Shown here piece after piece: positions 1-20,839 of a DNA stretch of 48,078 nt. Below the pieces are notes generated by a model. The model saw nothing but the letters and a program-made list of their open reading frames with translations, had not been told where the DNA came from and ran no database searches. The position numbers and the translations under genes are program-made. Every line of letters begins with the position of its first letter. The first letter of the stretch is position 1. The stretch covers positions 1,490,001-1,538,078 of the forward strand of contig MU057781.1 of the NCBI GenBank assembly GCA_013265495.1, given 5' to 3'. The DNA is from Vicugna vicugna. Lineage: Eukaryota.

Positions 1-29
1 CTTTCTGTTTCAACTTTATTAAAACCAGA

Positions 30-190
30 GGGGCCGCCGGCACTTGGGGGCGGGGTCGCGGCCTGGAGGGCGGGGCCTACGCTCTCGGGGGAAGCCCCGC
101 CCCCGTCGCGGGCCCCTCCGGTCAGGCGCGTGGGGGCGGGGGAGTCCAGGTTGCCTCTGCCAGGCCGCGCGTGACCAGCTGCCCTTGGGT
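30..190. promoter_or_regulatory. CpG-rich GC-box cluster at the window edge
   Basis: Four GGGCGGGG/CCCCGCCC boxes at about 47-55, 68-76, 94-103 and 132-142. Confidence 0.4.
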
Positions 191-627
191 CCGAAGGTGA
201 CCAGGTGACCCTCCCAGGACTCTGGTTCTCCTGGTTGTTTTGTTTTCGGTGGTTGCTGAAAGAATGAGAAGAGGAAGGAGAGAGAAAATCCGGAGAGCTT
301 TAGAGGACAGTGCTACCAAACCTCCCACCCTCGTCCTCCTGGACCGGACCTCAGGCCACAGAGGCTGTGCTGAGCCCACCTGGAGGGATGGAGGGGGTGC
401 ATGTGAAGGACTCCATAGGTCCTGCCCCTGTCAGCTCCAGCTGGTGGCTCAGGGAAGGGTTTATTTTGGGGTTCATCTCCTATTCCCCCAGCCCCCAGCT
501 CTGCCTTCTGGGGTGAGGGCCTGGCCAGCAGACTTGGGGGTTGGGGGAGTTACAAGGGGGGGTACCTGCTGTTTGCACATGTGTTCCTGGGAAGGCTGCG
601 GGGCGCAGAGTGTGTGGTGTAAAATCA

Positions 628-700
628 CTTCATTCACTCATTCATTCATTGCACAAACACCTGTGGGGCTTCTGCCGGTGTAGCCAGGCCCTGGAATGTA
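628..700 (-). mobile_element. L2 3' end remnant
   Basis: (TTCA)n tract followed by CAAACACCTGTGGGGCTTCTGCC..GCCAGGCCCTGG. Confidence 0.55.
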
Positions 701-3700
701 GCTCTGGGAGGGACAGGCTTGTCCGTGGCCCTTGGAAAGCCAAGGAATGGCTCTAGAGAACCACCCTCTGTGGCTTTGCCCCCAGCGCCAGCTACACCCC
801 AGCCCCAGGCCACACGTCCCCAGGCTGCACAGCAAGTTTTCAGGCCCTGGAGTCTGGGGTTTGGAGTCAGTCCTCAGGTACTCTGGGAGGTCGGGTGCCA
901 CTGTCCAGGAACTGGGCACCCGCTGGCCCAGGACGGGGCCTAAGTGGGCAGTTCAGACGGCAAGTGCAAGCCCAGTGGTCACTTGTCAGAAGTGCATCCA
1001 CTCAGCCTCCCAGGTCAGACAAAGCAGGGGCACTGTTTTGTTGGTAAAAGGTGAAGTGTGATGTTTATAAAAAAAAGTTTATTTTTGGAGTAGTTTTAGA
1101 TACATAAGATATAGCAAAGGTGGTACAGAGCATTCGGTGGGTTCCCCTGCACCCACACCTGGGAAGTTTGCTTGTGAATATGAGTGTATTCACACTTTGG
1201 AAGCTTAGCTTCCCTGCAGGGAGGAGGGTGGTCAGGACGGGAGGTGACTGAAGGGTCCTGCTGCCCTGAGGCCTCTGGGCAACCTGCCCTTGGTCCAAGG
1301 TGGGTGAGTGGTGGGAACCCAGCAGGGGCTGCAGATGTGGGCAGCTGAACAGGTGCAGCTGCTAGAAGAGGATGGTAGAGCTGGCTGCTCAGACCCACGC
1401 CTACTTGTAGTGAACTCCCATCCCCACCCACCATGTCGCTCTCCCTCCTCTGGGCACGGTGACCACCGACATGCATGGGAACGCTGTCCTTGCTGACTGG
1501 GCCCCTTGCCCAGGAGCACATGCAGACTGCAGCCTGACAGGGGGTGGATCCTGGGACCAGGTGTGCAGGCAGCTCTGGGTGGGGTCCGGGCCACCAGAAT
1601 TCCCCAGGGCTTTCCACGGCGGGCAGCCCCCCAGCACCTCTGCTCCCTGCCCAGGAGATGGCCGCCTGTAGTTAGCTCCTAGAATGAGGGTCCCCCAGGC
1701 CAGTCTGAATCCCTGCTGCCCCGTCCTCTGAGAACACGTGCCCTGCCCCCTCTCCCTCGTCCACCCTGGTTTCCTCCCTGTTCCCTCTGAGCCCTGGACC
1801 CAAGGGGTTTGCCAGCAGCTGCCTCTTGTTTCCTTATCCAGAGGGCAGGCCACAGTGGAGACTGAGTCTCCCTGGGCCAGGTGACCCCACCCCCTGCACA
1901 GGGCTCCCAGGAGGTGGCTCTCAGGCTGTGGCCCTCGGGCCAAGTGCCGGCCTCCACCTTGTGACAGGGCCTGGACACTGGACCAGAAGGGACTTCTTCT
2001 AAATCTGGGACATGAATGCAGAGACATCACCTGGCCGGGGATGCCTCCATTGGTGAACCTCAGGCCAACCTAAGGCACAGCACAGGTACAGCCACCCCGA
2101 GTGCTGACCACCACTCTTGCCTCCCATGGGCCTCAGCTGGGGCTGTGGCTCTCAGGTCCCCAGCTCCCTGGCTCCTGCACCGCTCTGGCAGCACCCCTGG
2201 GGAACAGGACCACTCATGCCCGGAACCAGGGACCCCCTTTTCCCCCACAGCCCCCACAGTCCCTCCAGGGCCCTGTCATGCACACAGCCAGGTGGCAGTG
2301 ACTTAGCTCTCCTAGGTGGTAGAAAAGAGGGAGCTGCCCCACTGCGGATGTGGGCCGTGTTGGGTCACGGTCAGGTCACAGGCGGCTGCAGCTGCGTGTG
2401 CTTCCTGAGCTGGCAGCCCCAGGCCAGGTGGCCTTGGAGGAGCCAGGCAGGGGTGGGTGACATCCTCCAGTGTCCTGGTCTGGGGACTGGTCCCCTAACT
2501 GCTGGACAGTGGCCTGGACACCCACTCCAGCTCTGTGCTTGCTCTGAGGTCCTGAGTGGCTGTGCCTGAGGGCGCCTGGCCTCTGCCCCATCTAAATGTC
2601 CGGCTGCAGGCCTGGCTGGTTAGGGCAGCTGAGGTGTCCTGAGGGCTCCACCCCTGGACAGATAATTGGGACACAGGCAGAGCGCCTGGAGCTGGCCTCA
2701 GCGCCCTCTGTCCTGGCTGCTCTGCCCCTCTGGGCTCTCCTCAGCCCTGGCCTTGGCACCAGCAGGCCCCACTCTAGCCCAGGGGGCATGGCTCAGAGCC
2801 GGGCCTGTTTCCAAACCCCTTTTGAGGAACAGACCAAAAGAAAGGAGCATCAGTGGCTTCAGCAAGTGAGCAGTTTACAACTCAGGCACACGAGCAGCTG
2901 CTGCCTCCCAAGCGGACCCAGCGGCTGCTGGGAGGGAACTGACTTCCACACACGGATCTCACAATTGCCCATCAGTTCCAACCACAGCTGTGCACAAAGC
3001 AAGCTCTGGCGGGACTTCTGTTTGCCTGTGAGCCATTGTTCCTGGTTTTGGAAGGAGGTTAAAAGAAACGTTTTGATGAGCCCTGAGCAGAGGTGAGCTT
3101 CCCCGGGTTCAGCCCTGAGTGTGAGGGCCGGTGAGGCGCCTGGGTTGGGGCCTGGGCACCGCCTGGAGCTCAGTGGAGCCCTGAGGGCTTGTTGCTTCCT
3201 GCATGGATGGTGCTGGCGAGGAGGTGCGCAGCCTTGACCACTGGGGGTGCTATTCCTGGTGAGGGTGCTGTCCTGAGGGGGTGCCATCCCTAGGGAGGGA
3301 GTGTGTCCCTGGGGGGTCGTATGCTTGGGAAGGGGGTGTTGCCCCCAACTGAGTTCAGGTTCACAGGAAGTAGACGTGTCCCCCGTGGTGGCCGGTGTCA
3401 GGGAAGGGCAGGAACCCCACAGGGCAGTTGGCACTGGGCCTCACAGACGGCAGTGACCGCCGGGCTCTCAGTCTGTCTGTAGTGGACACTTCCTGTGTAA
3501 CTGCTCTGCCCTGGAGAAGAGGGCGGTGTCGGGGGAGGGGGCAGCAGTTCCTCTCAGGCAGGGCTCGCAGGGGTCCTCATCCCTTTGTCTCCCTTTTTTG
3601 AAATCGCATTCAGACTCTGCCTTGATATGGAGAGCAGCCTCCACCTGATGGGGTTCCTGCCCCTTCGCCCGCCTGAGGTGCCACACTGGCCGGCTGTGGA

Positions 3701-5061
3701 CAGCACCCTCTCTACCAGCCACCGGAGCCTCCTCCAGTGCCCGGCGTCCCCGCTGGGCAGAAATCCGACACAGGGAGGACAGGCCCACTGGTAGCCCAGC
3801 AGGAAACGCGGGGTGGGGGCAGCATCCTGCTGCGGCCTTGAAAACAGAGGAAGTGAGTGCCTGGCTGCTCACAGCAAGAGCTGTTGGGATTTGGAGAGTA
3901 GGGGGCAGGGCTCCGTCTGAGGGCGCATGTCCCAGGGCCTGCTGTGCGGAGTTGGGGGCCTTCCCTGCCTCTGGGCTCTGGGAGTTTCCCAGCCTGCCCG
4001 AGGCCCTCTGTGCCCTTGGGCACAGCTCAGCATGAAGCTGGGCCCCCAGCACAATTTCTGACCCTGGTCAGAGGCTCTTCTCCACCTGCCCTCACCTGGC
4101 ATGGGCTTTGCAGGGCCCAGGGCTCCCCTGTGTCCCACCTGGGAGGTCTTTGAAACACAGGAACCCTTCTGGAGTTGGTGGAACAGGCCCTGGCTGGGGG
4201 TGGGGGATGGGCTGCAGGCCCCACCTGAGGCCTTCCCTGGGCCTGGAGCTCACCTGGGGGAGGGCGTGGTCTAGGTGTGGACGCAGCAGACCCAAGGCAG
4301 AGGAGCCTGTCACGTGTGGAGCTGACCAGAGCTAGGTTCTCCCTCCATCCCCTCCCAAATACTTCGCTGCTGCGCAGGTCAGACACACTGACACTGTGTC
4401 CACCTTATGGAGCCCTGCCAGGGGGGCAGTGATCCTGGAGCAGCACCTGTGTGGAGGCTGCTGGGGACGGCATGAGCCTCAGAGGCCCAAGTGGAGATCT
4501 AGACACAAAGAGGGAAAGGGTGACTGGCGGAGGGGATGGAGGCTGGGTGAGGCCGGAGCCCTGGGACTCAGGGGATTGGCGGGAGGGTAAGGGGCCTTGG
4601 GAGCTGGGTAGGAGCCAGATGTGGAGACTCCATGGACTGGCAGACAGCAGCGAGCTGAGGTCATCCAGTCCCACCCTGATGAGAGGGCAGGAGGGAAGCA
4701 GCCCCATGTCCCAAAAGCAGGAAGGTGGCCTGCGAGCTGGTGGGGTGGGTGTCCCAGGCCGAGGACAGCAAGAGCAGAACTGTGCCCCCAGCGCTGTTGG
4801 AGGTGGGGCCCTGGGCTGTTCTGAGGAAACACTCCAGGCCACACAGGGCACCGGCCACCGCAGGGCTCCGGCAGGAAGCACTTCCTGGCCCTGGACTCCG
4901 GCAACTGCATCTCGTGGTCACGGGCGTGGTTATGGTCGTGGTCACATGGCACTGCCTCTATGCAGCCGGGCAAGTCCAGGCTTGCAGACCTGTGCCTGCG
5001 TCTTCAATGCTCCGGTTACCGAGGTTTCCTCTAACTGTGTCTTTCCCATGTGCCATCTTGG

Positions 5062-5490
5062 ATTTGTAGTGGTGATATAATATACATAACATAAAATTTT
5101 CCATTTTAAAGTATACATTTTCGTGATAGGCAGTGTATTCACAAAGTTGTGCAACCATTAGAAGAATCTAATTCTGGAACATTCTCATCATCATTAGGTG
5201 CCACCCTGCTTTCCTCCTCTGCCCCTGGCAGCCACTTCCAGATGTTTCCCTTCAGTGGACTCAGACTCTACGTGGTCTTCACGCCCAGCTCCTTTCACTC
5301 AGGGTGACGTTTCCAAGGTGCATGCACCCTGTCGTATGTGCACTGCACCCCATTCCTTTTAATGGTGTGTCACATTCCATTGTGTGGATTTGCCATGTTT
5401 TGGTAACCCTTCATCACTTGTGCACATCTGGGTTGATTCCAGATTGCGCGTTGTGAGTGATAGGCTGCCTTATTTTGTGAATTGTGTAAA
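5062..5490 (-). mobile_element. Old L1M 3' end fragment
   Basis: ATATACATAACATAAAATTTTCCATTTTAAAGTATAC..TATTCACAAAGTTGTGCAACCAT is a typical antisense L1MB/ME terminus. Confidence 0.75.
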
Positions 5491-5862
5491 AGAACGAAAT
5501 GTCTTCAGGACGTGGAGTGTATGTCATAGCAGGAATGGCTGTGGCCGAGGCACCCCCCCACTCTCCTACTCCCATGGGCCATGCTTGGTGGCTTCGCTGC
5601 CCCACCATGCCAGGCCCAGCTTCCTGCAGCAAGATGAAGCCAGCTGTGCCTGGAAAGGAGGGGTCCCTGATTCTGGAGCACAGCCCCCCGACCCCTCTCA
5701 GCCCAGGCTGCTCGTGCCACCTGCCCCCGGACATTCTCCTGGCCTGTGGCTGCCAGGCCTGGCCCCCTCCGGCCCTTCCTGCTGCCCTTCGCCTGCGCAG
5801 CCCCTTGTCCAGCACTTGACTGCTGTGCTCCCACCCCATCTGGACCAGTGACTTGTCCATGC

Positions 5863-6385
5863 AGCGTCATTCAATAGAAACGCGACGTGAGCCTGTGTGT
5901 AACTGCAGGTGGTCTAGTAGCTACATCAAAACCATAAAAAGAAGCGGGGGAACCTCGTTGAATACTACATCTGTTTAACCTGATGTACCAGCGATCACTT
6001 TCACGTATAGCCAGTACAAAAATTGTTAGAGACATTGTCACCCTGTTTGTGGGCAGAGAAGTTTCTTTTTCAGTTGCACTGTTTTGTTCAGTTTGAAATT
6101 ACATTGTTTAATGGAGGGCGGGTAGACTGAAGCAGTCTGGGATTAAACGTGCCGCACGGTATTTGTATTTTGCAATGACGTGTAACTTTCTCCCCATAAC
6201 ACAAATTCTCTACCATTTCCATGTTCACTTTCTGTATCGCGGTGCTGGTGCTTTGTATGAAGAACATACCCATCCAGTTGGTAGCAAGTCTTTGAAACCC
6301 GGCATGTGTTTTCTACTCACCGCACATGCTCACTAGGACCAGCCATGTCTCGGGCTCTGTGGCCACGTGGGGCTGTGGGCTGCTT
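5863..6385. mobile_element. hAT-Charlie element with MER33-like ends and about 240 bp extra internal sequence (possible Charlie5 deletion derivative)
   Basis: CAATAGAAA..GAGCC..TCTAGTAGCTACAT..AAAAAGAA at the left end and AAGTCTTTGAAACCCGG..TGTGTTTT..GCACATG..AGCCA..GCCACGTGG at the right end, separated by an AT-rich insert at about 6050-6285. Confidence 0.6.
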
Positions 6386-8539
6386 AGCTTGGCTCCGGAT
6401 GCTGACCAAGCCCTCAGAGTGGCCTGGCACTGCCTTGGTCAGCAGAGTGATCCAGCCTAGCCTGTGGGGTCACAGGTCACCCACCCACAGGCACAGTGCA
6501 CACGGGGAAGGGCGGTTTTCTGACTCACGGTAAGTGGGGATGTTTCCACCCAAAATGCCAGCAGAAAGGGCTCCACCTCCAGCTCCCGAGCTGGCCTGCT
6601 ATCTGCTGGGGTCGGAAGGGAGAAGCCACCCCACTTCCAGGCTGAGCCCATGAGCATAAGGCTATGTGTCTGTCTGTGTGTGTATGGACACGTGTGCGCA
6701 TGTGGACGTGTGGGTGCACACAGGAGTATGTCTGTGTGTGGACGTGTGTGCAAGCAGGGGTGTGTGGGGTCTGGCTCCCAGGCAGGCTTGAGCCTTCACT
6801 GACCACCCTGCTGGGATTCCACTGGACAGGAGGTACCCTCAGAGGCCCGAGCACACACACGGTGCTGGCCCTCAGGTAGGGGAAGGGAGGGGTAGGGAGA
6901 CCTGAGAGGGAGATGGAGGGGGAAGGAGAGGAAGGACAATGGGGGCTGCAGCTGGTGCCCCTCTGGGCAGCTGGCACCAGTGGCTGGCTTGGCCGCTGGG
7001 TGAAGCTTCCTGGAGACACTGGGTGTGGGGGTGTTGGATGGCTGTCCTGAGGATCCCCAGCAGAACTTTCTCCCGGGCAGGCTGGGCCTCCAGCTGGACC
7101 CTGGGGTGAGAGGGAGCCTGCCCACCCACCAGCCACAGCCCCAGGGCTCTGCCTCCAGGGGGGCAGTAGGGGTCTTTCTGGTCTGGTTGGGGTGTGGAGG
7201 CCCTGGCAGCCCCGCGGGCACACCGTTATGTCATCTAGGGGCCCTGGAGTGGCCCGGTGAAGGCACAGCAATGGCGGGAGAAAGGCCAGGCCCTGCTGTG
7301 GGGTGGGCAGGAGGACCGAGGGAGCTCCGCCTCCTGCTCCTGGGGCTTGTGGAGGGAGATGCAGTGGGGTTGGGGGGACCGGAGCAGAGGCTGAGCAGGA
7401 GGATGTTACTGGAGGAGATTCTGTTGGGGAGGGTCACCCAGCAGCCGGGACCTTCCCTTGGAGGATGCAGCACCGGAAGAGCAATTAGGGACAGCCCCAC
7501 CCCCACGCCAGTCAGGCCCGCCCTGCTGACCCCAGCCAAAGCTCACCCTGTCGCCCTGGCCCTCCACTCACTGCTTCCCCAGAGAGTGCGGGGTCCCTCA
7601 GGGAGCCCTGATGGCCAGCACCACACCACCTTCTGGCCATCCTGCCTCCTGGGCCTCCAGTGGTGCTGGGCCACTTCTCCTCAGCCCGCCTCCTTCCTCA
7701 ATCTGGTTCCTGCTTTCGTTTTCCTGCGCCTGTTTGTTTTAGTAGAGATGCCTCCAGAGAGCGTCAGCTGCAGACTTTCTCCTGTCCCACGACAGCTCCA
7801 GGGGTCGTCCCCGGCTGCCTGCCGCCTCCTCTGAGGACTGGAGTGAGGACTGGACAGCACAGGGCCGCCTGTGCCTCTGGACCCCTGGACGCCGCGGAGG
7901 GTGCGCCCGGCCCCACTTGGAGGTGCAGGTGAGGAAATGCAGGAAGGCTGCAGCCCCCCCAGGGAGGGGCCCTGAGAGGCCAGACTTGCTCAGCTGCCAC
8001 CTCTGGGAGGGGTCAGCCAAGGTGGAAGGGCTTGCTAGCCGGGAAAGTGTGGTGTCTTCCTGTCACTAGAGCGGGTGGGGGTTGGGGCCCTGGGGAAGGG
8101 GGTGGGGAGGTGGTTTCCTGGAGCTGCTGGCTAGATGGCCTGGGACCTTGCAGGGCTGGCCCGGACCTTGTGACCCTCACTCTGTTCACCCAAATGAGGC
8201 CAACGGCCACAGTGAGGTCCCGGCCCCTCTTGTGCCTGCAGGTTTGCTGGGCTTCAGAGGGAGGGCCGCTTGCTGGGGCCACCACAGCTGGCCATGGAAG
8301 TGCAGGAGAGCTCCCAGGATTGAGCCAGGAAGAGGCTTCTTAGACACAAGCAGACAGACGCCAAGTGATGGCAGTTCAAGCTCAGGCCTCCGCCTGGTGA
8401 GGCTGAGCAGCAGGGTCTCTATGGGAGGGTGTCAGCAGAGCAGTGACGTCCTAGTGCCCTGGACAGTGTGGCTGCCCGTTGCGGGCTCAGTTCACTTGTG
8501 GCCCTGCGGGACACGACCCTGATGCTCACACCACACAGG

Positions 8540-8786
8540 GCCACTTCCCACTGCTCCGGAGGCTGGGTTCCGCTTCCTGGCTTTTACATGCTGCCTTCTC
8601 GCCGGGTCCTCCTGTGGGGAGGGGGCGGGGGGGAGGAGCTCTCAGGGGTCTCTTTCCAAAGGACACTGATGCCATTGCGGGGCCTCATCACCACCTCATC
8701 ACCTCCCATAAGTCCTGCCTCTTGGACCTTGGGAGTTAGGATTTCAATGTGTGAACTGGGGGGACCCAGACACTCAGTCTATAGCA
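8540..8786 (-). mobile_element. Degenerate MaLR LTR (MLT1A/MST-like) just upstream of the TIR ORF
   Basis: GAGCTCTCAGGGGTCTCTTT..AAGGACACTGATGCCATT..ATCACCTCCCA..TTAGGATTTCAATGTGTGAA..CAGACACTCAGTCTATAGCA. Confidence 0.65.
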
Positions 8787-8844
8787 ACCCCCCATGGCCA
8801 GTGACACGTGAGCCACATGTGAAGGGAAAGAAGGCCTGGGAGGC

Positions 8845-10500
8845 ATGTCCAGCAGGCACCCAGACCCCTTCAGATGCCCCGTGGGCACAGCAGAGGCTGG
8901 TTCCCCAGGGTGCGCTGCAGTGGGGTCCCACGTCATGTGGGTTTGGCAGAGACCCAAAGGCAAGCCAGGGAGTGAGGGCTTCCTAGTGGGAAGAGAGCTC
9001 GGGGCCCCCGTCCCCCCAGGAGGCTGCATCCTCGAGGTTGGTGAGGGGCACATTGTGACCTTCACCAGTGGGTCTCGAGTTGGAAGGGGAAGAGGGACAG
9101 TGGTTGGCTGCATCCTGGCAGGGGTGGTTAGCTGCAGCTTCTCAGGCTGGCAGCCGCTCCACTGCTATAGACAGTCGGCCGCAGTCTGTCCGCATAGTCA
9201 GGCTGTCTCCATCTCTTGCAGCCTAAGGGCAGTTTTCTCCTTGGGGACCAGAGGCAGATTCGGGGCATGCCCATGGGTTCCTGTCCCGAGGAGGAAGGTG
9301 CGGCCCCTGCCATCCCCCCCGCTGAAGGCTGGCGAGAAGTACCACCTGTTCGTGAGTTACAGCAGCGTGGACGCCGCGTGGACCCATGGGCTCATCAGTC
9401 GCCTGGAGGTGGACCACGCAGGGCTGAAGGTCTGCCTGCATGAGCGGGACTTCATGCCGGGCAGGAACGTTCTGGAGAACATGGCCGATTGCATCCACCA
9501 GAGCCAGAAGGTGCTGCTGGTCCTGAGCCAGGACTTCGTGCAGAGCCGGTGGTGCTTGCTGGAGGCCGACCTGTCCCTCTTTGGCTCCTGCCTGGAGCAG
9601 AAGCCGGTCATCCCGGTCCTGCTAAGGCCCTGCCAGGTCCCGCTCTACCTCAGCCACCTGACCTATCTGGAGGCCACGGACGGCCGCTTCTACCACAAGG
9701 TGGTGCAGCTCCTGTGCACACCCAACCAGCGCGTGGCACGCCCCCTGGGCCTGCGCTCGGCCCCCTCCCTCTACAGCGGGAAGACCCTGCTGACCCTGGA
9801 CTGCATCAACAGGGAAAGCCTGCCCTCCTGGAGAGTGGGCACCTTCAGCACCCTGGCCGTCCCGGACCCCTTGAAGCCGGTGCTGGAGGACCCCGAGGTG
9901 TACAGGCATGCTGTGGGCATCCTGAATGGGGTGCAGTCACCTCGGTCCTGCCTCCGGTACCTGGGCTGCAGGATCACACTGGGCATCTTCCTGATTCTCC
10001 TCTCCTTAGTATCAATCCTCCTCCCTTTGGTTTTGGGGCTCTCGCCAAACCAGCCTCCTCAGCGGCTCCTCCTGATCACTGCCAACATATTTTTCTGCCC
10101 CTTCTTTATGATCTTAGGCATTAACACTTTGTGCTGGTTCAGAAGGTTTTCTAAGAGGAAGACGCGGGAGCTGGATCTCAGGGTGGGTGAGGCCAACCTG
10201 CTGCTGGCGCCCCACTCGGTGCTGATGGGCAGCAAGACCATGAACAGGCTCCACTTCGTGTACGTTGTGCTGGGGGACTGCAGGGAGGCCTTCCTGGAGG
10301 CGCCGGGTGGCGAGGCCCTGTTCCGGGAGGCCCTGGTGCAGTTCTCATCCAGCTACGCCTGCTGCCTGGCCCACGCGCACTTCCCCGACTCCGAGGACGC
10401 TCCCGGGGCTCCGGGCCACCTGGAACTGGGCCTGTGCTTCTGCCGGTTCGTCTCTCTGCAGCTGAGGAGACAAGGGTGGCTCAGGGCTCCCCCTGTGTGA
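8845..10500 (+). CDS. Uncharacterised TIR-domain plus TMEM268(DUF4481)-like two-TM protein; single coding exon. The recognisable part is 9319-10500 and the probable true start is ATG 9267 or 9273
   Basis: 551-codon ORF with strong GC3 bias from about 9320. TIR motifs: box1 YHLFVSYS (9340), box2/BB loop CLHERDFMPG (9433-9462), SQKVLLVLSQDFVQSRWCLLE, IPVLL, LTYLE. Two hydrophobic helices at about 9973-10041 and 10066-10140 are followed by basic RRFSKRK. C-terminal motifs DLRVGEANLLLAPHSVLMG, LHFVYVVLGDC, FSSSY and H..CFCRFV resemble TMEM268 as I recall it. The first ~150 codons look non-coding. Confidence 0.85.
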   Translation: MSSRHPDPFRCPVGTAEAGSPGCAAVGSHVMWVWQRPKGKPGSEGFLVGRELGAPVPPGGCILEVGEGHIVTFTSGSRVGRGRGTVVGCILAGVVSCSFSGWQPLHCYRQSAAVCPHSQAVSISCSLRAVFSLGTRGRFGACPWVPVPRRKVRPLPSPPLKAGEKYHLFVSYSSVDAAWTHGLISRLEVDHAGLKVCLHERDFMPGRNVLENMADCIHQSQKVLLVLSQDFVQSRWCLLEADLSLFGSCLEQKPVIPVLLRPCQVPLYLSHLTYLEATDGRFYHKVVQLLCTPNQRVARPLGLRSAPSLYSGKTLLTLDCINRESLPSWRVGTFSTLAVPDPLKPVLEDPEVYRHAVGILNGVQSPRSCLRYLGCRITLGIFLILLSLVSILLPLVLGLSPNQPPQRLLLITANIFFCPFFMILGINTLCWFRRFSKRKTRELDLRVGEANLLLAPHSVLMGSKTMNRLHFVYVVLGDCREAFLEAPGGEALFREALVQFSSSYACCLAHAHFPDSEDAPGAPGHLELGLCFCRFVSLQLRRQGWLRAPPV

Positions 10501-13500
10501 CAGCTGGAGGGGCCTGGGGGCAGGGCCTGTTTTTGGGCATCCAGCTGCCGCTGAGCTGGCCCTGCAGACTTGGCAGCAGTGAGCTCTGGGCGGCGCACAC
10601 AGGCCTCCCCACTTCGTCAGCTGTGCCCAGCCGGGCGGCCCTGAGGCCCCTGCAGCACCCAGAGGACCCACAGGCTGCTCTGAGGGTAGAGGTTACCAGC
10701 AGCAGTCCCTCAGGCCTGGCGTCCTGCTCCAGCCTGACAGTCGGGAGAGGAGGGCTTTGTCAGACTACCTGGGAGGAGGCTGGGGAAGCAGCGGTCTTGC
10801 TGTGGGACCCTCGGGAGATAGTCACTGCCCATCTCTGGATGGTCAGTGCATGTCCAGGGGCCGGGGCGGAGTGCGCTGGCTCCCTGGGCCCCCTGAATAG
10901 CTCCTCCAGGAACCTGCCCCCGTTGCTGGGACACAGATCAGATGGACCCCGAGGTTCACTCTCAGCCACACACACACACACACACTGTGCGCCTGCCGTC
11001 CGTGCTGAGAGCCCATGGGGGCCAGCCACAAGCCATCCTCGGCTGAAAACAGCCTGCGTTTGTCCTCAGTGCGGATATCTGCTGGTCAGACCCAGATGGA
11101 CTTCAGACTGGGTGGGTGCTGTGTGCTGCCTGCCTCCCCTCCGGCTCCGTCCCAGCTCCTGAGACACAGACCCTGGGTCGGTATCCTTCCCCTTCTGGAG
11201 GAGAGTGAGTCTGGGGCTGCAGCATGGCCTCCTGCAGTCCAGCAGCGGAGCCTGTCCGTCCACAAACACTGCCCCTGAAGACAGGCCTCTGAGCTCAGAG
11301 GTGGTGGCGCTTCTGCTGAGAGAGCGGCATTTGAGGGGCACAGACGTGACCTGATCCTGGGTGTGGGGGCCCAGCAGGAGTGTCTCCTGAGAGTCCCAGT
11401 TGCGCCCTTACCAATCCGTAGACGAGCAGCTGGCGGATTGCAAGTCTGGTGCTGGGCAGATGTTCCCAGGTGTTGTGCTGGCCAGAGCTTGGCTAAGCAG
11501 CTGCGTGGTGTCTCTGCCTCACCCATTTCCCAGGTGCAGGCCCTGGACCGCAGCTGCAGAAGCACAGGCAAGTGAGGCTCTGGAGGCTTTCCCAGCAGCA
11601 CTGTGAGTGACAGTGCCCTCCCTCCCAGGCCCTCCCCAGCACTCCTTAGATGAGACCCCCATTCCCCGCAGAGTGTACCAAAATCCCACTCTTTTGGTTT
11701 GAACTGGCCGATCTGCCCGCTAGCCCAGGGATCTCAAAGCACTCTCCCCACGGAACCCGATGCAGGCTCGTGCTGGGGTCGGCCTCTCTGTCTACACCCA
11801 CCTGACCTCCCCCATCAGTAACAAGTTCTCTGCTTCAGTTTCTTCCGTGGTCTGCTCTTGAACTTGGCAGCACCCTGGGCTTCTCTTACCAAGTGTTAAT
11901 CAAGCTGAATCACAAGGCGACTGTCCTGCTGGAGGCAGCATTGGCCCGCTCTGTCCTGGGGCCAGGGCCGCACGGAGAGGATCTCCCTCCAGAGGAGACT
12001 GAGCAGCAGGCAACAGTGAGAGAGGCAGAGAAGGGGGGGTTCCGGGCGGGGGTCCGCACCAGCAATGGCACCAGACAGGAATCTGGTCACAGCGAGAAGC
12101 CTGAACCTCGGTGGCCCCAAAGATGGGCCCTGACACAGCCTCTCTGTGGCTGGTGGGGCCTGGCACTCCTGTACGTTGAAGGGCTGGGGGCCGCTGGGGA
12201 AGCAGCAGGGCCAAGACATGACCACAGGCTCTGCCCCAGAGTGGGCACCTGTGAGCCCCAAAGCCATCTGGGCCCCACGTGGAGAAGAGCCTCTTGTAGC
12301 AGTGGAGGCTCCGGCTCCCTTCCAGGGGCCCCCTGGACTCCGCTGGGTCCTCCAGCCTCTGCAAAGTCTGAGTGTGGGACCACCCACCCAACTTCCGGGT
12401 CAGAGCTGGCTCCTAGACGGCACAGGTGACACCCACAGACACGGAGGAGCCGACTTGAGGCCACACCTGCCCAGGCCGAGGGTCCACTCAGTGCTGAGTG
12501 CAGCTGGATCAGAGAGCACTGGAGCCTCGCATGCAGAGCCGGGCAACTGGTCAGCCTTTCAGGGCCAGACTCCCGGTTGCATCACAGGAAACCCTGGGAG
12601 GCCATGCTGGGGCTGGAGGTTGGGGACGGGGGTGGGCATGGCCTCGCTGTGCACGCACAGGCACGTGCATGGGCTCCTCGGGCATGCCGGTGACAACAGT
12701 GGCATTCCTGCTCGGTGGTGCCCAGCGGTGCATCTGAAAGAGGGCAGAGAGACAAAAGGGAGGGCAGAGGTCTCTCGTCAAAAGACCAAGATTTTTCATC
12801 ATGAAATAGTATATTTGTGCAATCAGAAAGGAGAAGCATTAGAGGAGCCATTCTGCTCTCACACAGGCTGTTGGGAATCTAAGCCTCCTTTGAACTGAGC
12901 CTACGACAGTGCCTCAGCCAGCCTTGCTCCAGTGCCCCTGGCCTGGCCAGCCCCACATTGCTGTGCAGATCCCCCACTGGGGCAGGCAGTGTCGGCTGTG
13001 GGGGATGCTAGACCTGGAGGAGTGGCCCCCCAGAGTGCCCACTAGGCTGGCCACCCCCTTGCACCCACTCCAAGGCTGCATGACCCAGGCCAATGGCTCC
13101 AGAACACAGGGACCCCAGCCCACCCTCCAGGGCCTGGACCCAGGGCTGTCACACTGCCTGCTCTGGCCCCTTGACCTCGCCACCTGCACGAGAGGTCAGT
13201 GGCTTGGGGGGGGGGGTCGGACGGGGCCCTGCATACCTGCTGCAGCAGGAGCAGCGGCCTTCACGGTGGAGTGCCTGACCTCCACTATCCGCCCCAGGAC
13301 AGGACCCCAAATCACCACCCTGGACAGGTGAGGATGGAGGTGCAGGCTCCTCTGTGCCTCTCAGGGACCTGGAGCTCCACCCCCTGCAGACGCCCCAAAA
13401 TGCCTCTCCTCAGTCTTGGGCTGGTTTTCAGCAGGGTGACCCCAGGCAGGTGGGGCTGAGGCTCTAACCAGTGCTGGGAACCCCCTGACAAGGCTGCTGG

Positions 13501-13899
13501 TCACCAGGGGTCAGGCAGCTGTCCCAGGCTCACTCTCAGACCTGGAGCACCACCCCCTGGTGTTCACCCCAGGGCCTCTCCCTTGGCCGCGTGGGTTTCC
13601 CGTGAGAGGAGAGTGAGGTCCCCAGGACGGGGCTGCTGTGCCCTGGTGACCTCATCACAGCTTGGGCCTGCATTTAGCAGGAGTGACCAGGGCTCTGAGT
13701 AGACAGGCCCCAGGGCCCTACTTCCACTGCCCCTCCACCTGGCTGGGCTCTGCCTTGTGGGTCAGGTGAGCCTCACTATGGACAGTGGGGATGGGCCAGA
13801 GCTGCCCTCGCCACCACCCTCCTCCAAGTGGACAGGGTGGGGGACACAGCACCGAGGTCAGCAGAGGACTGTCTTGTACCTGCTGTGGGTGTTGTGGAA

Positions 13900-15290
13900 A
13901 AAAAAACCTTCAGGGGAAAAATGTGAAGCAGAATAAGTAAAAAAATGCACGTGCATCTGCGTATTTCTGCAAAAAGATACACAGGAAGGCGGAATTAGAC
14001 TAGTAAGACTGAGTTCCTTCAGGGGGCGGGCGGGAGGCAAGTGTCTTATCTGGGACTTCTTTTGTGTGGTTTTGCCTTTGGGAACCATGTTAATATTACA
14101 CGCTAAAAAACAATATAATAAAACCAACAAAAATGAGGAAAGGACACTAAAAGGGAGTATAAGCAGTAATAAGGGACTCTTCTATGTTTCAAAGGAATGG
14201 CATAACTGCACTGATGTGAAAAAAAGAAAAGCTCCAAGTAACTTTTGGCCTGGCGCTTTGACTATGCACCCTCAGGCTGAAGGCAAACGCCCTCCTCTAG
14301 TTTGCAGGCTCACTTCTGTCGCGGTACGGACACCAGTTCCGAGGCAAAGTGCGGCGCACTCTGAGACTAGCGAGTAAGTATACTGAGGATGACAGGAGCC
14401 AGGTGTCTCTGCGGAGAAGGGGCTCCCATCACGGGAAGGAGGAGAGTCTCACTGGGAACTCCAGGAGTTCCCTGTGTGTTGTACACATGTGTGTAGATGT
14501 GTGGGCATGTCGTACAGATTTATGAGGGTTGTGTCTATGCATGTATGTGCACTTATGCACATACACACATACGCTTAGAGGAGAGAGATCTAGATGTGTG
14601 TATGAGTGTGTATACACACATCTACCCTCAAAGTCCAGCCACTGGGTGTGCCTCTGAAACTGAGTCCCCCTAAACCCGAGTGCCCTTACTGAGTTTATGA
14701 TTCATCTCACCACCCAAAACTTTGTTCCCTTTCTTGTGCCCTCAGACCTCAGTCCTGCACTCACTGAACACTCACCAACCAGAGTCAGAAGACTAAAACT
14801 CCTGTTGTCAATAAAATTGCCAATGTACCCAAACTGCCTGTGTAGACATCGTCATTAACATACAAACTCAGGTTATTTCTCCAGGGCAGGGTGAGCTAAC
14901 AGAGCCCTGAGCCATGGACCACCTGGCCAGAGACATCCTGACTCCCAAAACTAGATTAAGAACGGTCGCAGGAATCCATGGGTCCCACTGATATAAATAA
15001 ATGACTTAATGGGGGGCAGGGCAGGGGGGTCTTCCTTATAGTCGGCTAAGAATTGTAGAAGAATCAATTGAATGTAGAAAATTATCACTTGGAAAATATT
15101 GTTATTGATTCGGACAAAAATCTTCCCTGGATGCTATTACTAGGTGAGGGGTTTTTATGTAAATATTATTACTCACCAGTCTCAAAGCATCTTCCACAAA
15201 ATGTGTATTAATTTAGAAAGGGAAAAATGGTGGTTTTATAGGGAAAAACCTTGTCAGAAGCCACCTTAGGCACATTATGGAGTTAACCTC
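13900..15290 (+). mobile_element. Old L1MC/ME-like fragments with a (TG/TA)-rich simple repeat at about 14470-14620
   Basis: Abrupt A-rich blocks in a GC-rich background with L1 3'-UTR-like wording; subfamily not resolved. Confidence 0.45.
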
Positions 15291-16544
15291 ACCTCCCTCC
15301 ACCTTGCCTCCCTCCACCTTGCCTCCAGTGTGGGTCTCACTCATCTTCTGGACCCCACCCGCTGTTCCAAGGCTGCCCAGACCCCCTACATTGCCAGGCT
15401 GGAGGCCTAGCAGTCAGATTCCCACCCTTCTTCTGAGCACCTTGGGAATCACCCAGCCCCAGTGCTCAGCTGCAGGGCAGATTGCTGACACTGGCTCTAG
15501 ACAGGTCACCTGACACCGCAGAGATGCTCCGGGCTCTCATTCAAGGCAGGCACTCTGCACTGGGGCTGAGGGGAGCTCCCCAGGAACTCCCACCCATGTA
15601 AGGCAGCAGTCTCCAGCTGTTTCCTCCGGCTGCCTGGGCTTCCCAGGCCCTGTCATTCCTGTCTGCCAAGCCCAGCTCTTAGTCCCCAGGCCTGAGCTCA
15701 CCTCCAACCAGTGGGGTATCTGGGCCTGGGGGCCAGTCATCAGAGGAGGACAAGGGCTTCAGGGGAGGGGCACAGTCTGATCCACCCAGGTTGGGGCAGA
15801 GCTGGGACCTTTCAGAGTTGTGGTAGGGGGAGGTAGGGCAGGCTGTGCTTCCCAAAGTGAGCTGCCAGGGTGAATGAGAAGACTCTTGGTGGCTCAGGGC
15901 ACCCATGGGCCCTCAGACCTCCCGCCCCACCTCTAGCTTCCAGAAAACAGAAGATCCAGTGTTCTATGGGGCCCTCTGGGGCCCCAAGGGCCAGCTTACA
16001 CCCCTCCCCCGGATGCCCTATGTGCCCTCAGATGAGCATCTGCTTGATGCTTTATCCAGTCACTCATCTCGTGGGCAGTGCAGCTTGTGGGCAGGAACCG
16101 TATGTGGGTGCTGCCCAGAGCCCAGGGATTCAGACGCTCCCACCAGATGGGGGAGTGGCTTAGGGACCAGGCCCAGCACCCGTAGACTGTGATGGACATG
16201 GCTGGGCTTGGGGCTAGATGGAGGTCAGTTGGGAGGCTTCCCTGGGTGGAAGCGAGCTTATTCCGTTGTACCCAGCCGAGCGATGGACCAAACCAGGGCC
16301 TGTCCACTTGGGGCTTTGGCCCCCAGGCAGGCTTGCATAATGGCCCTTGCCTCCTCCCCTGTACGCATGAGCTGCGTGAGCCTCGTGTCCAGCTCACTGC
16401 CCTCCGCGGCCATCACTGCTCCCCGAGGTCCCTCAGGGGTCCCTGTAGGCAGTGGAGGACAAGATGCGGGTGCTCGCCCAAATTGGGGTTGAGGGGCAGG
16501 AAAAAGGCCGGAGGAACCGAGGCTGCTCAGGAGACGCGAGAGCC

Positions 16545-16762
16545 AGGTGGATGTGAATCTTTACTTAGAGAAAAGCGACAGAGCTAGAGGCTCACTGGGC
16601 GGGGGCGTCAGCGAGGGGTCCTGGGAGCAGGGCCACGACCACAGCGGGGAGAGCCTCTGGCGAGGGCCGGCGCAGGTAGCGGCGTAGGGTGCTGCGAAGA
16701 CAGAGGGGACGAGGGGTAGGAGCGGGCGAGGCGGGGCCGGCACACGGCCCCCTACCGCGCGC
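16545..16762 (-). other. CALY: Probable CALY terminal non-coding exon with variant polyA signal AGTAAA (16560-16565)
   Basis: Donor GTAGGT at 17030, 27 nt after the stop (NMD-safe distance); pyrimidine-rich acceptor TTCTTCCCCTGCAG ending at 16763; no nearby AATAAA seen. Confidence 0.45.
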
Positions 16763-17057
16763 CTGCAGGGGAAGAACGGCGAGACTGAACCCCGCCCGCC
16801 CGCCTCCGGTTCACCTGACACCGCCCCCTCCGGTCCCGCGGGTCCCGGCCCGCCCAAGCCCCTCCCAGGAGCTCAGACGCGGTCACAGGGGTCGCGTGGG
16901 CGGACAGCACCCCTGGGTAAGCCTCGGGCAGATGGGGTAGGCGCTCCCGGGGTGGGGGGGATAGGGAAGATGCTCAAAGGAGTGGCTGGGGTCTACATCC
17001 ACGCCCCCGGGGCCGCCGGGGCACACCTACCCGGACGGGCTGCGGGCGCAGAGGCTG

Positions 17058-20000
17058 TCACTGGGGGGCTGGGGGCAGCGCGCTCCCCGCCACCTGCGCC
17101 GCCTCTTTCTCTCCCTGAGCGGAGGGCTTCTCCGAGGGCTTCAGGGAAGGCTTGGCGGAGGGCTTGGCGGAGGGCTTGGCGGAAGGCTTCCCGGAGGGCT
17201 CCGAAGCGGCGGCCGCTGCGCCCGCCCGGTTGGGTGCCTTGGGCGTCTCCTTGAAGGCGCGGTAGCCCCCAACCCACGGCGTCTCCGTGCCGTGCTTGCG
17301 GCCCATTGGGTAGGCCCCAATGGCCGCCAGGATGCTGCGGTGACGCTCGGGGTCCAGCTCGGTGTAGTACATCTCCAGAGTCAGCGGGGTGCAGATCTTG
17401 TGCTGCGGAAGTGAGCCGGTCAGGGGCGGGGGCGGGGCGCAGGGAAGAGGGGCCGCGAGAAGCCGGGGAGAGGGGAACTGGGGAGGGAGGCGCGCGGGGG
17501 GGGTGGGGGAGGCGGCCGCGCCCATGGGCCCGGGTGTGCAAAGCGGGGTGTTGTCCTCAGTGACATCGGACACGACGCAGGAGCCATGTGCGAGGGCCAC
17601 ACGCGGGAGAGCGGTCACCTCGGGGCCTTCCTGTCCCTTCTGCTTTTGAGCAGTTCAGTAGTACTGTAGACAGTGCCCTTAAATCCATTTGTTTCTGCCA
17701 TAATTTCAAGCCACCAGAGGTCAGCCTCCAATTCAGAACTCAAAGCCCCAGGAAGAGCCAGCCCTTGTCAGACACGGGTGGTCGTGGCCTCTTCCGGGGT
17801 GAAGGGAAGGGGGCTCGGCGAATGCAGGCAGCCCGCCCCTAGCCCGCAGACTTCCGAGGGATCCCAGTGAGTGCCCGAGGTTAACAGCCCAAAGGACCCC
17901 TGGGAAATACAGCCTACGGGCCTCTGGGCACGTGTGGTCGAGCGCTTCCACCTCGGAAACCACGGGAAAGGCGGGGGTTTAGCTACTGGGAACTTAGAAG
18001 CTTAAAAAAATTACACTGAAAATGATTTTTTAAAAGTCATCATAAGCAAAGTCGAGAAAAAAAAAGAATGGGGAAAATACCTGTCACACATATAGAAAAT
18101 TATGTCCTGCGGCCTAGAAGCCCGCCGCGTGCCAGGCAGGGAGGAAAAGGCCGGCCCCGCGGGGAGAACCGTGCGGCCTGTGGTGGGGCCCGCACCTTCA
18201 CCCCCGCGGCACCCCCTTCCTTAGGCTCCACTTTTTAAATCACAGGAAGACAAAACCTCCAGCTAAAACACCTTTTCTTTTCATTTTTCTAAAGATAGGA
18301 CTCGAATATACCTGGGAGGTCACAGTCCCACAGACGGGAAACGCCTTTCCCCTCCACCCCGAGGAGGGGTTGGCGGTGCGGGGGAGGGGAGCGGAGGCAC
18401 CTGTCACCCAGGCTTCCTCAGGACACCCGCTCAAGACCCTCCCTGGTACTCTGCCTGGAGGCCATCAGAGAGCAGGGGGGCCTGACTGCCCCTTCCCAGC
18501 CCCGGTGCCCAGGCTGCCGTCCTTACCCGAAGCAGGAAGCCGTCGGGGCAGCTGAACTGGTCGTACCAGACAGCCTTGTACATGATCACGACGCAGGCCA
18601 GGAGCGCCAGGGTAAATGCCAGCATCCTCCCCGTGGACACCTGGCGGGTGGGGAGGTGTGGAGGGGAGAGCCCAGGTAGGGGGATGTGAGGCTGCAGCAG
18701 GGCCCTGCAAGGACCACACAGCCCCGTGCTCGCTGGCCTCTCGGAAGTGATGGAGAAAGGGGGAAAGGGCAGATTAACTACTGAAAAACGAAGGTTTCAG
18801 AAATAGTACACTAAAAATGATAAAGAGCCGTCATTAGTAAGGTTAAGAGCTGGAAAAGGAAGGGGAAAAACGTTTGCCTGACACCTTACAGAAAAAGTGC
18901 CTATTGTATGCAGGAAACCCAGGAGTCACCAAGGAAGAAACAAGGACCCACCTGGGAGAGGGTACAGGGCACGAGCCAGCACCACCCAGACAGCGATCCT
19001 CCGAGGGCAGCTGCTGCTCTCACCCCACTTTACAGCGACAGGGAGGCTGGGGCTTAGCCTGGCGCTGCCCAGCCCTGCACCCCACCCCTGAATGGGGTGA
19101 TTCCCTGTGACACTCTCCCCCTGAGAGCAGGGCCCTGACCAAGGGCCCAGCTGACCCAGCCCAGAGCCTGGGTGCCCAGGACCTGTAGGTGCCTCTCCAC
19201 CGCCCTGCCCTAACTCCCCACGGAACTGACAGGAGGGTTGGGTACCCTGCGCCCATGGCCCGAGTGGCTGCCGCTCAGTTTCTGGGCCTCCAGATCGGAG
19301 AACTTCTTCGACTGGTCCGGGGAGGACAGCTGGTATTCCGTCTGTGTCTTAATGACCACCTGTGGAAAGAGATGACCCCAGAGGCCCTGAACTGGGAGGG
19401 CTGGGAGAGAAGGGGACAAGGGGTCTGCTGCCCACAGTGGTGTGGGTGCTGGCCATCTGCCAGGACTGGTGAGTGGCAGGGTTCCAGGGGCTGCCGGCTG
19501 AGGCCTAGGGAAGGTGGACACTGGAAGTCTGCTGGGGCCATGGCAGCCCACGTCCTGGCCAGACCATGGAAACAGCCCCTCAGTCTGCTGGCTGCCTTTG
19601 ACTCTGAGGGTGCTAGCTCTCCCTGCCAGGAGCTTCCCCTTCAGTGGCTCTGTAGCTTGGGTTTCTTAGAAAGCCCACCCCGATTTCTCCTCTGACTCCC
19701 AGAGTCTGAGGCCCCACCACAAAGGCCACAGGCAGGTGCAGTCCTGTGCCTCATGTCTCCCACTGAGGGGCAAGGACTGAGCCTTCCCACAGTGTCCTTT
19801 GAGAACTAGGTCCAGAACCATAGCAGACTCAGCTGAAGCCCACACAGATTGCTGGAGAACTGCCCTTGGCCACAGGAGCAATGCCTGGAAAGTATTCCCA
19901 TGGTCCCCAGTCATAGCTGACCGATGGGGCCTCCAGCTGGGACAACTCTTGGTACCATTCACTCTACAGGCTCAAGTGGGATCAGGCTGGGCTGTGTCAG

Positions 20001-20507
20001 AGCTGAGCTCTGCTTCTTACAGATTCCGTATGAGAGCTCCCCCTCCACCAATCACTTGCCCAAGGACCCCATCTCAGTCCCCAACCCAAGACAGAACGCA
20101 CCCAGCAGAGGAAGGGTGGAGAGTTTTGCTTGCTGAGCCCCTGCTGGACAGCAGACAGGCTGGGCGCTGTCTGTGTGATAGTGTGTGAACTCTCACTGTC
20201 ACCCTGAGGCTGGTTTACCCCAGTTTACAGGTGAAAAGGGTGGTTCTGGGTGGCAGGGGAGCTGACCGGTCACACAGATGGCCAGCCTCTCCTGCACCTT
20301 GCAAGAAGCCACACCTAAACCAACCCCTCCTGTACCCCTTTGTTTCCGCTTCGTCCTTTCTTGCTCACCTACCTGGTCAGCAAAGGATGGCTGCAGCTGG
20401 CTGACATCCAGGGGGCTGATCAGGGGGACGCTGTCCATAATAGCCCCATCCTGGTCCCCAGGGTCTTTGCCTGACTTCCCCGAGAAGCTGCAGCTCAGCT
20501 TCACCAT
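17058..20507 (-). CDS. CALY: Calcyon neuron-specific vesicular protein (NSG family), 235 aa
   Basis: Coding exons 20373-20507 (MVKLSCSFSGK...ADQ), 19246-19359 (VVIKTQTEYQLSSPDQ...), 18527-18640 (TM segment, MYKAVWYDQFSCPDGFLLR) and 17058-17402 (HKICTPLTLEMYYTELDPERHRSILAAIGAYP...PAPQ*). All introns GT-AG, phase 0; Kozak CCACCATGG. Confidence 0.97.
17119..17202. repeat. Coding 12-bp tandem repeat x7 in CALY exon 5 (EPSG KPSA KPSA KPSA KPSL KPSE KPSA)
   Basis: Units gcggagggcttc, tccgagggcttc, agggaaggcttg, gcggagggcttg x2, gcggaaggcttc, ccggagggctcc read directly. Confidence 0.95.
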
Positions 20508-20839
20508 GGTGGATGGTAGTCCTTGTCCTGTCCACAGGTAGACACAGAGTCACTGCCCACTGGCCACCTAGCAGATGTTCACACCAGCTGGCTCTGGAGT
20601 GAGAGGACCCCAGGTTGACCCTGATGCTCCTCACGCCAGAGCCAGGACGGGCTGTGGGCAGCCAGGCCAATCTCCCTAGGACAGACCAGGCGAGACCAGC
20701 CACAGGGTTCTAGTCCCTTCCTGCCCACTGGGCTCCCTCGAGTCCCCACAGCCCTGCAGGGGATGGCGCCTCTAGAGGACATTCCAAGAGCAGCTATTCC
20801 AACCAAGAGAAAACAATCCCAGAGAGAAGGCTGGAGAGT

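Follow-up and report, generated by a model that had tools for sequence, protein, structure and literature searches.

A stretch of 48,078 nucleotides from Vicugna vicugna (contig MU057781.1; called the window below, with positions counted from its first letter) holds the South American camelid copy of an unnamed vertebrate gene, listed for the alpaca as RefSeq LOC107033828. We are very confident of this identity together with the domain architecture of the product, in which a TIR domain is followed by a membrane module resembling that of TMEM268 (the DUF4481 family). TIR-domain proteins are central to the circuitry of innate immunity, and which of them vertebrates possess is commonly judged from human and mouse. 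What is new is the membrane architecture, not previously described for a TIR signalling protein; the gene models themselves were already in the databases. As for function, the explanation that we consider best, though with clearly less confidence when taken as a whole and with its mechanism included, is that this camelid copy of the TIR-DUF4481 gene acts as a membrane-tethered TIR scaffold.

The main frame is found on the + strand at 9268..10500 and consists of 410 codons followed by a TGA at 10498-10500. Counted from stop to stop (8812-10500) the frame spans 562 codons, which makes it the longest of the 126 open reading frames (ORFs) of at least 110 amino acids (aa) in the window. An earlier reading made from the letters of this DNA (hereafter the sequence-only reading) had called the frame codon-biased, in agreement with a G+C content at third codon positions of 0.861 against 0.571 for the window. 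The translation is 100% identical to the Vicugna pacos protein XP_072828281.1 (LOC107033828) from residue 17 to the C-terminus, and 410-aa models are present in all three Camelus species, with 94-97% identity to the window translation. The same reading had presented the gene as unrecognised. This holds for the literature, where we found no paper, but not for the databases: automated annotation has already modelled the gene, with the RefSeq label 'uncharacterized protein' and as UniProt A0A6J3A7Y8, 'TIR domain-containing protein', and only its function is unrecognised. Within the full-text literature (subscription journals and supplements fall outside this scope) no publication deals with a TIR-DUF4481 protein or with six of its LOC identifiers. 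Among the open full-text papers listed for TMEM268, C9orf91 and DUF4481, none concerns a TIR fusion; the search for DUF4481 gave the paper on TMEM268 and ITGB4 only. Some orthologues are named 'Toll-like receptor 1', '2' or '10' in the databases. These names are wrong, as the proteins have no leucine-rich repeat (LRR) region and the TIR domain precedes the membrane segments.

The TIR domain (aa 24-150; 9337..9717, + strand) proved to be complete, as had been claimed. Pfam reports TIR_2 (PF13676) with an E-value of 2.2e-19 over aa 28-140 and TIR (PF01582) with 1.2e-12. Both scores exceed the curated gathering cut-offs (70.5 bits against 28 and 48.4 against 21.3, respectively), and both families are matched by all 39 orthologues analysed. 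The landmarks of the domain are box 1 (YHLFVSYS), the BB loop (RDFMPG) and a WCLLE motif. None of the 39 orthologues departs from H26, F28, S30, Y31 and S32 in box 1, from R60, D61, F62 and G65 in the BB loop, or from W95, C96 and E99, and all but one have the BB-loop proline P64. PMC8635717 names the BB loop as important for TLR signalling and a catalytic glutamate as important for enzymatic TIRs.

Comparison with solved structures gives a clear ranking. The nearest sequences in PDB are the TIRs of TLR2 (2.8e-19) and TLR1 (6.5e-19), then those of TLR6, TLR15 and TLR10. Farther matches are Hydra TRR-2, oyster TIR-STING (6.1e-12), MyD88 (1.5e-8), and MAL and TRAM (1e-5 to 1e-4); the PDB sequences that reach E≤1e-3, 40 in number, include no SARM1 chain. 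A full-length AlphaFold2 (AF2) model based on the 39 orthologues (predicted local distance difference test, pLDDT, 73.3; predicted template modelling score, pTM, 0.56) has strands and helices in the alternation typical of a TIR domain, with strands at 25-31, 55-59, 79-86 and 114-118 and helices between them. When this model was searched with Foldseek, the TIRs of TLR1 (4.1e-7), TLR10, TLR15, TLR2 and MyD88 were found, with a probability of 1.00 for TLR1, TLR10, TLR2 and MyD88, and no fold other than TIR domains was matched. Judged by these matches, the domain is of the TLR1/2/6/10 type, with the BB-loop proline and the WCxxE glutamate intact. Pfam at E≤1 gave no LRR family, death domain, ARM/SAM or other effector domain in the window protein, and no TRAF6-type motif was seen in an informal look by eye.

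Downstream of the TIR domain lies a conserved segment (aa 166-225; 9763..9942, + strand) with invariant Y169, G171 and K172 and a strand at 172-178 in the AF2 model. It is followed by the two hydrophobic helices that had been noticed before. The Kyte-Doolittle scan places them at approximately aa 236-258 (transmembrane helix 1, TM1) and 267-291 (TM2), and together with the 8-residue loop between them they form a transmembrane hairpin at 9973..10140 (+ strand), which is also supported by flank charges and by AF2 helices. In the model the latter extend over 226-257 and 263-316; beyond them come a beta hairpin (318-332) and another three helices. Three lysines and arginines precede TM1, and seven occur within 22 residues after TM2. 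Because both flanks of the hairpin are positively charged, we infer that both termini, and hence the TIR domain, are cytosolic; the earlier proposal of this orientation is consistent with these charges and with an outer loop of 8 residues. The claim that the protein has no ectodomain also stands: only 23 of the 410 residues precede the TIR domain, both hydrophobic helices are C-terminal of it, and there is no LRR.

The relationship of the C-terminal half to TMEM268 was analysed with a profile of 15 C-terminal modules (A3), which was searched against 1.84 billion representative proteins. This yielded 51 proteins at E≤1e-3. In a Pfam scan of 23 of these 51, DUF4481 was found in 7 at E≤0.01, and 4 exceeded the gathering score: dog TMEM268 isoform X2 (P0174), a sea cucumber protein with both TIR and DUF4481 (P0168), and two unnamed proteins. 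The dog protein was recovered at E 4.7e-4 and carries DUF4481 at 7.2e-92 (308 bits); the sea cucumber protein was matched at E 1.3e-5. Conversely, PF14800 (DUF4481) is matched by 21 of the 39 orthologues at E≤0.1, with 7.3e-6 as the best value. Direct alignment of A3 to 15 mammalian TMEM268 sequences with hhalign gave a probability of 93.8% and an E-value of 1.7e-7 over 74 columns, located in the soluble block just after TM2. This post-membrane block (aa 287-356; 10126..10335, + strand) is homologous to TMEM268 residues 148-229. The sequence-only reading had listed six colinear blocks in common with TMEM268. Colinear blocks were indeed recovered by hhalign, the central one at the value just given, but the C-terminal block (E 0.018) and the N-terminal block (E 0.11, in the pre-membrane segment aa 166-225) come from sub-optimal alignments and are weak alone. 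A search of the ESM Atlas with the module ranked three DUF4481/TMEM268 clusters first, but the score of 0.79 falls within the range of shuffled proteins, and this serves as a lead only.

A further link between the two families is formed by the tail, which had been described as containing Cys and His. Four of its residues in the arrangement C338...H384...C390-x-C392 (10279..10443, + strand) occur unchanged in all 39 orthologues and align with C206, H314, C322 and C324 of TMEM268, which are invariant in 15 of 15 TMEM268 sequences. It is reasonable to regard this Cys-His-Cys-Cys set as a candidate metal-binding site. Overall, homology of the C-terminal module to TMEM268/DUF4481 is supported by these profile matches, and the predicted order of a TIR domain and then a two-helix TMEM268/DUF4481-like module is backed by Pfam, by the reciprocal profile search and by the profile-profile comparison.

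The gene is widespread. Named placental orthologues of about 400-460 aa are present in camelids, horse, carnivores, bats, ruminants, pig and elephant, and eight marsupial orthologues show 51-52% identity. Other named orthologues come from caecilian, frog, axolotl, lungfish, paddlefish, reedfish, many teleosts and lamprey; between alpaca and teleosts the identity is 44-48% over 94-98% of the length. Partial models exist for pangolins, tree shrew, cat and alligators. The sequence-only reading had suspected an old gene, and with a range from lamprey to placentals and the same architecture in a sea cucumber protein this turned out well. It had also considered a loss in primates or rodents. In the protein databases no primate, rodent or lagomorph occurs among the 88 named proteins of the 120 matches listed, nor is one named among 24 short matches. 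As a control, the same database lists many TMEM268 proteins of primates and rodents, for instance from Homo, Pan, Pongo, Macaca, Rattus, Castor and Marmota. This pattern fits a loss of the gene in primates and rodents, as judged from protein databases rather than genomes. Many teleosts have at least two paralogues (in Acanthopagrus latus, Labrus mixtus, Lates calcarifer and Paralichthys olivaceus, for example, two LOC entries per species), and in gobies several copies of the TIR-DUF4481 gene are truncated or rearranged. Local paralogue expansion is common for immune genes.

To place the exons and to compare alleles, four public runs were aligned to the window over 8300-11300: X1 and X10 (DNA), and X17 and X19 (RNA contigs from two studies). 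The two sets of RNA contigs are 95-99% alike to the window and are therefore attributed to a related camelid, from which reproductive-tract samples were the source. Both cease to match the window at 9217, with an identical upstream loose end. A 30-mer from the consensus of this loose end maps to 7894-7923 with 2 mismatches, against 0 chance matches in 100 shuffles. Although the contigs break at 9217, the true junction is 7928/9222, because TGCAG is common to the end of exon 1 and the end of the intron. The donor context is CAG/GTGAGG at 7928/7929 and the acceptor context ttgcag/CC at 9221/9222. Since this junction is canonical, the contigs derive from spliced RNA. The gene thus had been called intronless with partial justification: the whole coding sequence does lie in one exon, but the RNA contigs splice a 5' exon to it. 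Of this 5' exon, which is untranslated in the annotated model, the last 35 bases were placed at 7894..7928 (+ strand), and 541 bases stand upstream of the junction in the X17 contig. The GT...AG intron (7929..9221, + strand) measures 1293 bases. Exon 2 (9222..11300, + strand) contains the whole coding sequence and at least 800 bases of 3' untranslated region; the X17 contig covers 9217-11300 without joints and runs past 11300.

The same contigs allow an estimate of constraint. Between the window and the related camelid 21 coding differences are listed, 10 nonsynonymous and 11 synonymous, which correspond to a nonsynonymous rate (dN) of 0.0114, a synonymous rate (dS) of 0.0381 and a dN/dS of 0.30, with 5 further differences outside this list. 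The protein alignment shows no nonsynonymous difference beyond those ten, save changes confined to single Camelus models, so any unlisted coding difference would be synonymous and would lower the ratio. These values indicate that the gene is under purifying selection. On three points the sequence-only reading had exposed itself, and it fared well on each: a DUF4481 profile match is present, the gene is neither named nor characterised, and dN/dS is about 0.3.

The frame had been called intact, but the copy in the window carries a frameshift. The annotated camelid proteins begin with MPMGSCPEEEGAAPAIPPLKAGEKYH, the same peptide (MPMGSC...) in Vicugna and Camelus, and the window encodes it from the ATG at 9267..9269 (+ strand), one frame off the main ORF. 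Translation from this ATG gives MPMGSCPEEEGAAPAIPP and ends at a stop codon 58 codons on. One frame passes into the other within a run of C at 9314..9320 (+ strand), corresponding to codon 18; the rest of the frame, 393 codons, is free of stops and matches the annotated alpaca protein exactly. The run counts 7 C in the window and also in X1, a DNA run of the same organism that is a possible source of the window. X10, a DNA run of the same organism from another study, has one base fewer at 9314, that is 6 C, and 6 C are found in X17 and X19 as well. It follows from X10 that the intact form exists within the same organism. Shares of sampled words were obtained for more runs: six (X1-X6, from four studies) hold 100% of the words and five others hold 96%, which is the expected cost of the two X10 differences. 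The word shares suggest that the 7-C form is a real allele and not a rare one (of these runs, X1 and X10 alone were compared base by base).

In a spliced 7-C mRNA the main frame has no ATG from the stop at 7609 up to Met63, which lies inside the TIR domain. As the annotated start is out of frame and no in-frame ATG precedes Met63, the 7-C allele of the window probably makes no full-length protein. The ATG at 8845 was considered as an alternative start and was rejected for the spliced mRNA because it is intronic. Here, ahead of the coding exon, the main frame continues without a stop through 152 codons (8812-9267, + strand, inside the intron), and an intron-retaining transcript may use this upstream ATG. 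The RefSeq models of the sheep and fallow deer orthologues (577 and 453 aa, respectively) have N-terminal extensions. Two single-base differences were seen besides the C-run. Position 9645 is G in X10 and both RNA contigs and C in the window and X1, a synonymous change (L126), and position 8541 is T in X1 and X10 against C in the window. The combination of 6 C with G at 9645 looks like an ancestral haplotype common to the related camelid.

Regarding function, we propose that the protein would be a membrane-tethered TIR scaffold with a cytosolic TIR domain, a reading suggested by a TIR of the TLR1/2/6/10 type, the kept BB-loop proline and the lack of an output domain. Such a scaffold would join, nucleate or cap the TIR-TIR assemblies of TLR/IL-1R receptors and MyD88/MAL-type adaptors. 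It would serve as an adaptor or, given that no output domain is present, more probably as a modulator or a decoy. From the DUF4481 module it would gain its location at the membrane and perhaps a site for a partner, in analogy to TMEM268, whose C-terminal part binds integrin ITGB4.

Among the closest known systems, TMEM268 (C9orf91; PF14800) has a similar two-helix hairpin, the homologous post-membrane block, the invariant Cys...His...Cys-x-Cys set and weaker colinear end blocks. It differs in having no TIR domain and a ~50-residue acidic, proline-rich insert before the tail, and in being present in primates and rodents. Its TM helices lie at 104-126 and 130-152, as given in PMC6748091. The TIRs of TLR1/2/6/10 are the best matches in both sequence and fold and have box 1, the RDFxPG BB loop with its proline and WCxxE in common with the window protein. 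Full TLRs, however, consist of a signal peptide region, an LRR ectodomain and a single-pass helix with the TIR C-terminal of it, whereas here a signal peptide region and an LRR ectodomain are absent, and the TIR comes first and the hairpin after it. SIGIRR/TIR8, TRAM and MAL resemble the protein in function, by our inference, in being membrane-held TIRs with no obvious catalytic output. SIGIRR is a single-pass protein with an Ig ectodomain; TRAM carries a myristoyl group, and MAL binds to PIP2. A DUF4481 module is not known in any of the three, and the TIRs of MAL and TRAM are far more distant (~1e-5 to 1e-4). The protein also falls outside the classes of MyD88, MAL, TRIF, TRAM and SARM1: their second domains are absent by Pfam, and the TIR scores are far weaker than those for TLR1/2. 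The same domain order is seen in the sea cucumber protein of Apostichopus japonicus (P0168, XP_071821381.1), with TIR_2 (4.5e-8) and then DUF4481 (5.4e-21, 75.6 bits). At 515 aa it is longer and much more divergent, and it is likewise uncharacterised.

Several observations weigh against the explanation as set out. For the module, the window/alpaca protein itself has no Pfam DUF4481 match even at E≤1 (the PF14800 gathering score is 25 bits), and of the TMEM268 blocks the central one alone is significant by itself. The AF2 model of the C-terminal module (pLDDT 73.5) gave no informative fold among 48,161 PDB representatives; the best Z was 7.1, and the folds at the top were helical hairpins only (a subunit of oligosaccharyltransferase, OST, Get1/2 and designed bundles). 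The topology is a prediction from hydropathy and charge by the positive-inside rule. The putative scaffold or decoy role is derived solely from the TIR subtype and the absence of output domains, and E99 is invariant at the position of the catalytic glutamate of NAD-cleaving TIRs, so that the protein may have an enzymatic role. Evidence for expression consists of contigs of a related species, which give no expression levels. Finally, the 7-C run may be a sequencing error common to the assembly and X1, or a real allele.

One alternative is that the protein would mainly control how stable integrins or other receptors are, in the manner of TMEM268, with the membrane module as its working part and a TIR domain that only adds a link to innate signalling. 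Its appeal lies in the homology of the module to TMEM268. According to two papers, residues 104-342 of TMEM268 bind ITGB4 and protect it from degradation (PMC6748091), and TMEM268 binds and stabilises CD11b (PMC11169502). In addition, the pre- and post-membrane blocks are conserved from fish to mammals. The conservation per region speaks against an accessory role of the TIR domain, however: this is the best-conserved part between alpaca and teleosts (identity 0.64), compared to 0.45 for the pre-membrane segment, 0.17 for the hairpin, 0.35 for the post-membrane block and 0.45 for the tail. Also the acidic, proline-rich insert of TMEM268 is missing from the window family. We therefore rate this alternative as unlikely.

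We find it quite unlikely that the TIR domain is an enzyme, which would self-associate at the membrane and cleave NAD+ or produce a nucleotide signal in the manner of SARM1, plant and bacterial TIRs, with the DUF4481 hairpin as anchor or trigger. PMC8635717 states that SARM1 and plant TIRs require the catalytic glutamate and self-association. When two full-length copies were modelled together the scores were 0.00 and 0.00, a result that weighs neither way on self-association. The E99 of WCLLE, kept in every orthologue, occupies what we take, from plant and TLR motifs, to be the catalytic glutamate position. Other signs in favour are the weak matches to bacterial effector TIR families (CAP12-PCTIR_TIR in 15 of 39 orthologues, best E 0.0019) and the match to the metazoan TIR-STING. 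Nonetheless, the closest relatives by far are the scaffold-type TIRs of TLR1/2/6/10 (~1e-19) and MyD88, and SARM1 does not appear among the 40 PDB matches. The aligned glutamate is present in TLR1 (WCHYE) and TLR2 (WCKYE) too, and we know of no NADase activity of these TIRs, so E99 is not diagnostic of an enzyme.

Apart from function, the camelid locus could be a decaying pseudogene with the open frame as a relic. The frameshift at codon 18, the lack of an in-frame upstream ATG in the spliced mRNA and the word shares of X1-X6, which suggest that the 7-C form is not rare (X1 alone having been compared base by base), would agree with decay. Yet no stop interrupts the other 393 codons, which encode exactly the annotated alpaca sequence, X10 has 6 C, dN/dS is 0.30 against a related camelid that makes spliced RNA with an intact frame, and all three Camelus species have 410-aa models, which makes this reading very improbable. 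Least probable of all is that the likeness to TMEM268 would be the generic look of a two-helix hairpin on an unrelated C-terminal domain: the missing Pfam DUF4481 match of the window protein, the ESM Atlas score in the shuffled range and the flanking hhalign blocks that are not significant alone point that way, but the significant block lies in the soluble region after TM2 and not in the helices, dog TMEM268 was recovered among 1.84 billion proteins, the sea cucumber TIR protein exceeds the DUF4481 gathering score, and the four Cys/His positions are invariant in both families.

A conserved TIR gene that is apparently absent from human and mouse marks a genuine gap in the TIR inventory. If the membrane-tethered scaffold is a modulator of TLRs, the gene would be relevant to infection biology in livestock (camelids, ruminants, pig and horse), carnivores, bats and fish, and it would provide a first functional context for the DUF4481/TMEM268 module. 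In its widest form, which we consider doubtful, the idea would be that vertebrates, and deuterostomes in general, have an extra membrane-resident TIR component that ties a TMEM268-type module, possibly integrin- or receptor-binding and metal-binding, to assemblies of the TLR/MyD88 type; that primates and rodents have lost it; and that the 7-C frameshift is perhaps a common camelid null allele. If so, the standard list of TIR proteins, compiled from human and mouse, would lack a member in most other vertebrates, among them livestock, and the 7-C null allele would amount to a natural knockout, with loss-of-function animals among South American camelids.

As to the surroundings of the gene, the expected neighbour CALY is indeed present. 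Three ORFs on the - strand at 17061-20549 match successive stretches of the Calcyon profile (positions 1-53, 78-121 and 115-176; E 1e-15 to 3e-12) and represent CALY exons, convergent with the TIR gene. The neighbours MSX3 and ZNF511, which had also been named, did not come up: no homeobox or zinc-finger family is found in the 149 window ORFs of at least 104 aa. Smaller ORFs (62-103 aa) were scanned in 1-7400 and 10600-17000, and none of these 98 gave a Pfam match; short exons would escape both scans. Farther downstream, an ORF of 119 aa at 31496-31852 (- strand) matches the Pfam family Proton_antipo_M (transmembrane, NADH:quinone oxidoreductase/Mrp antiporter) at 4.2e-9 and resembles a piece of a mitochondrial ND gene that was inserted into nuclear DNA (nuclear mitochondrial segment, NUMT).

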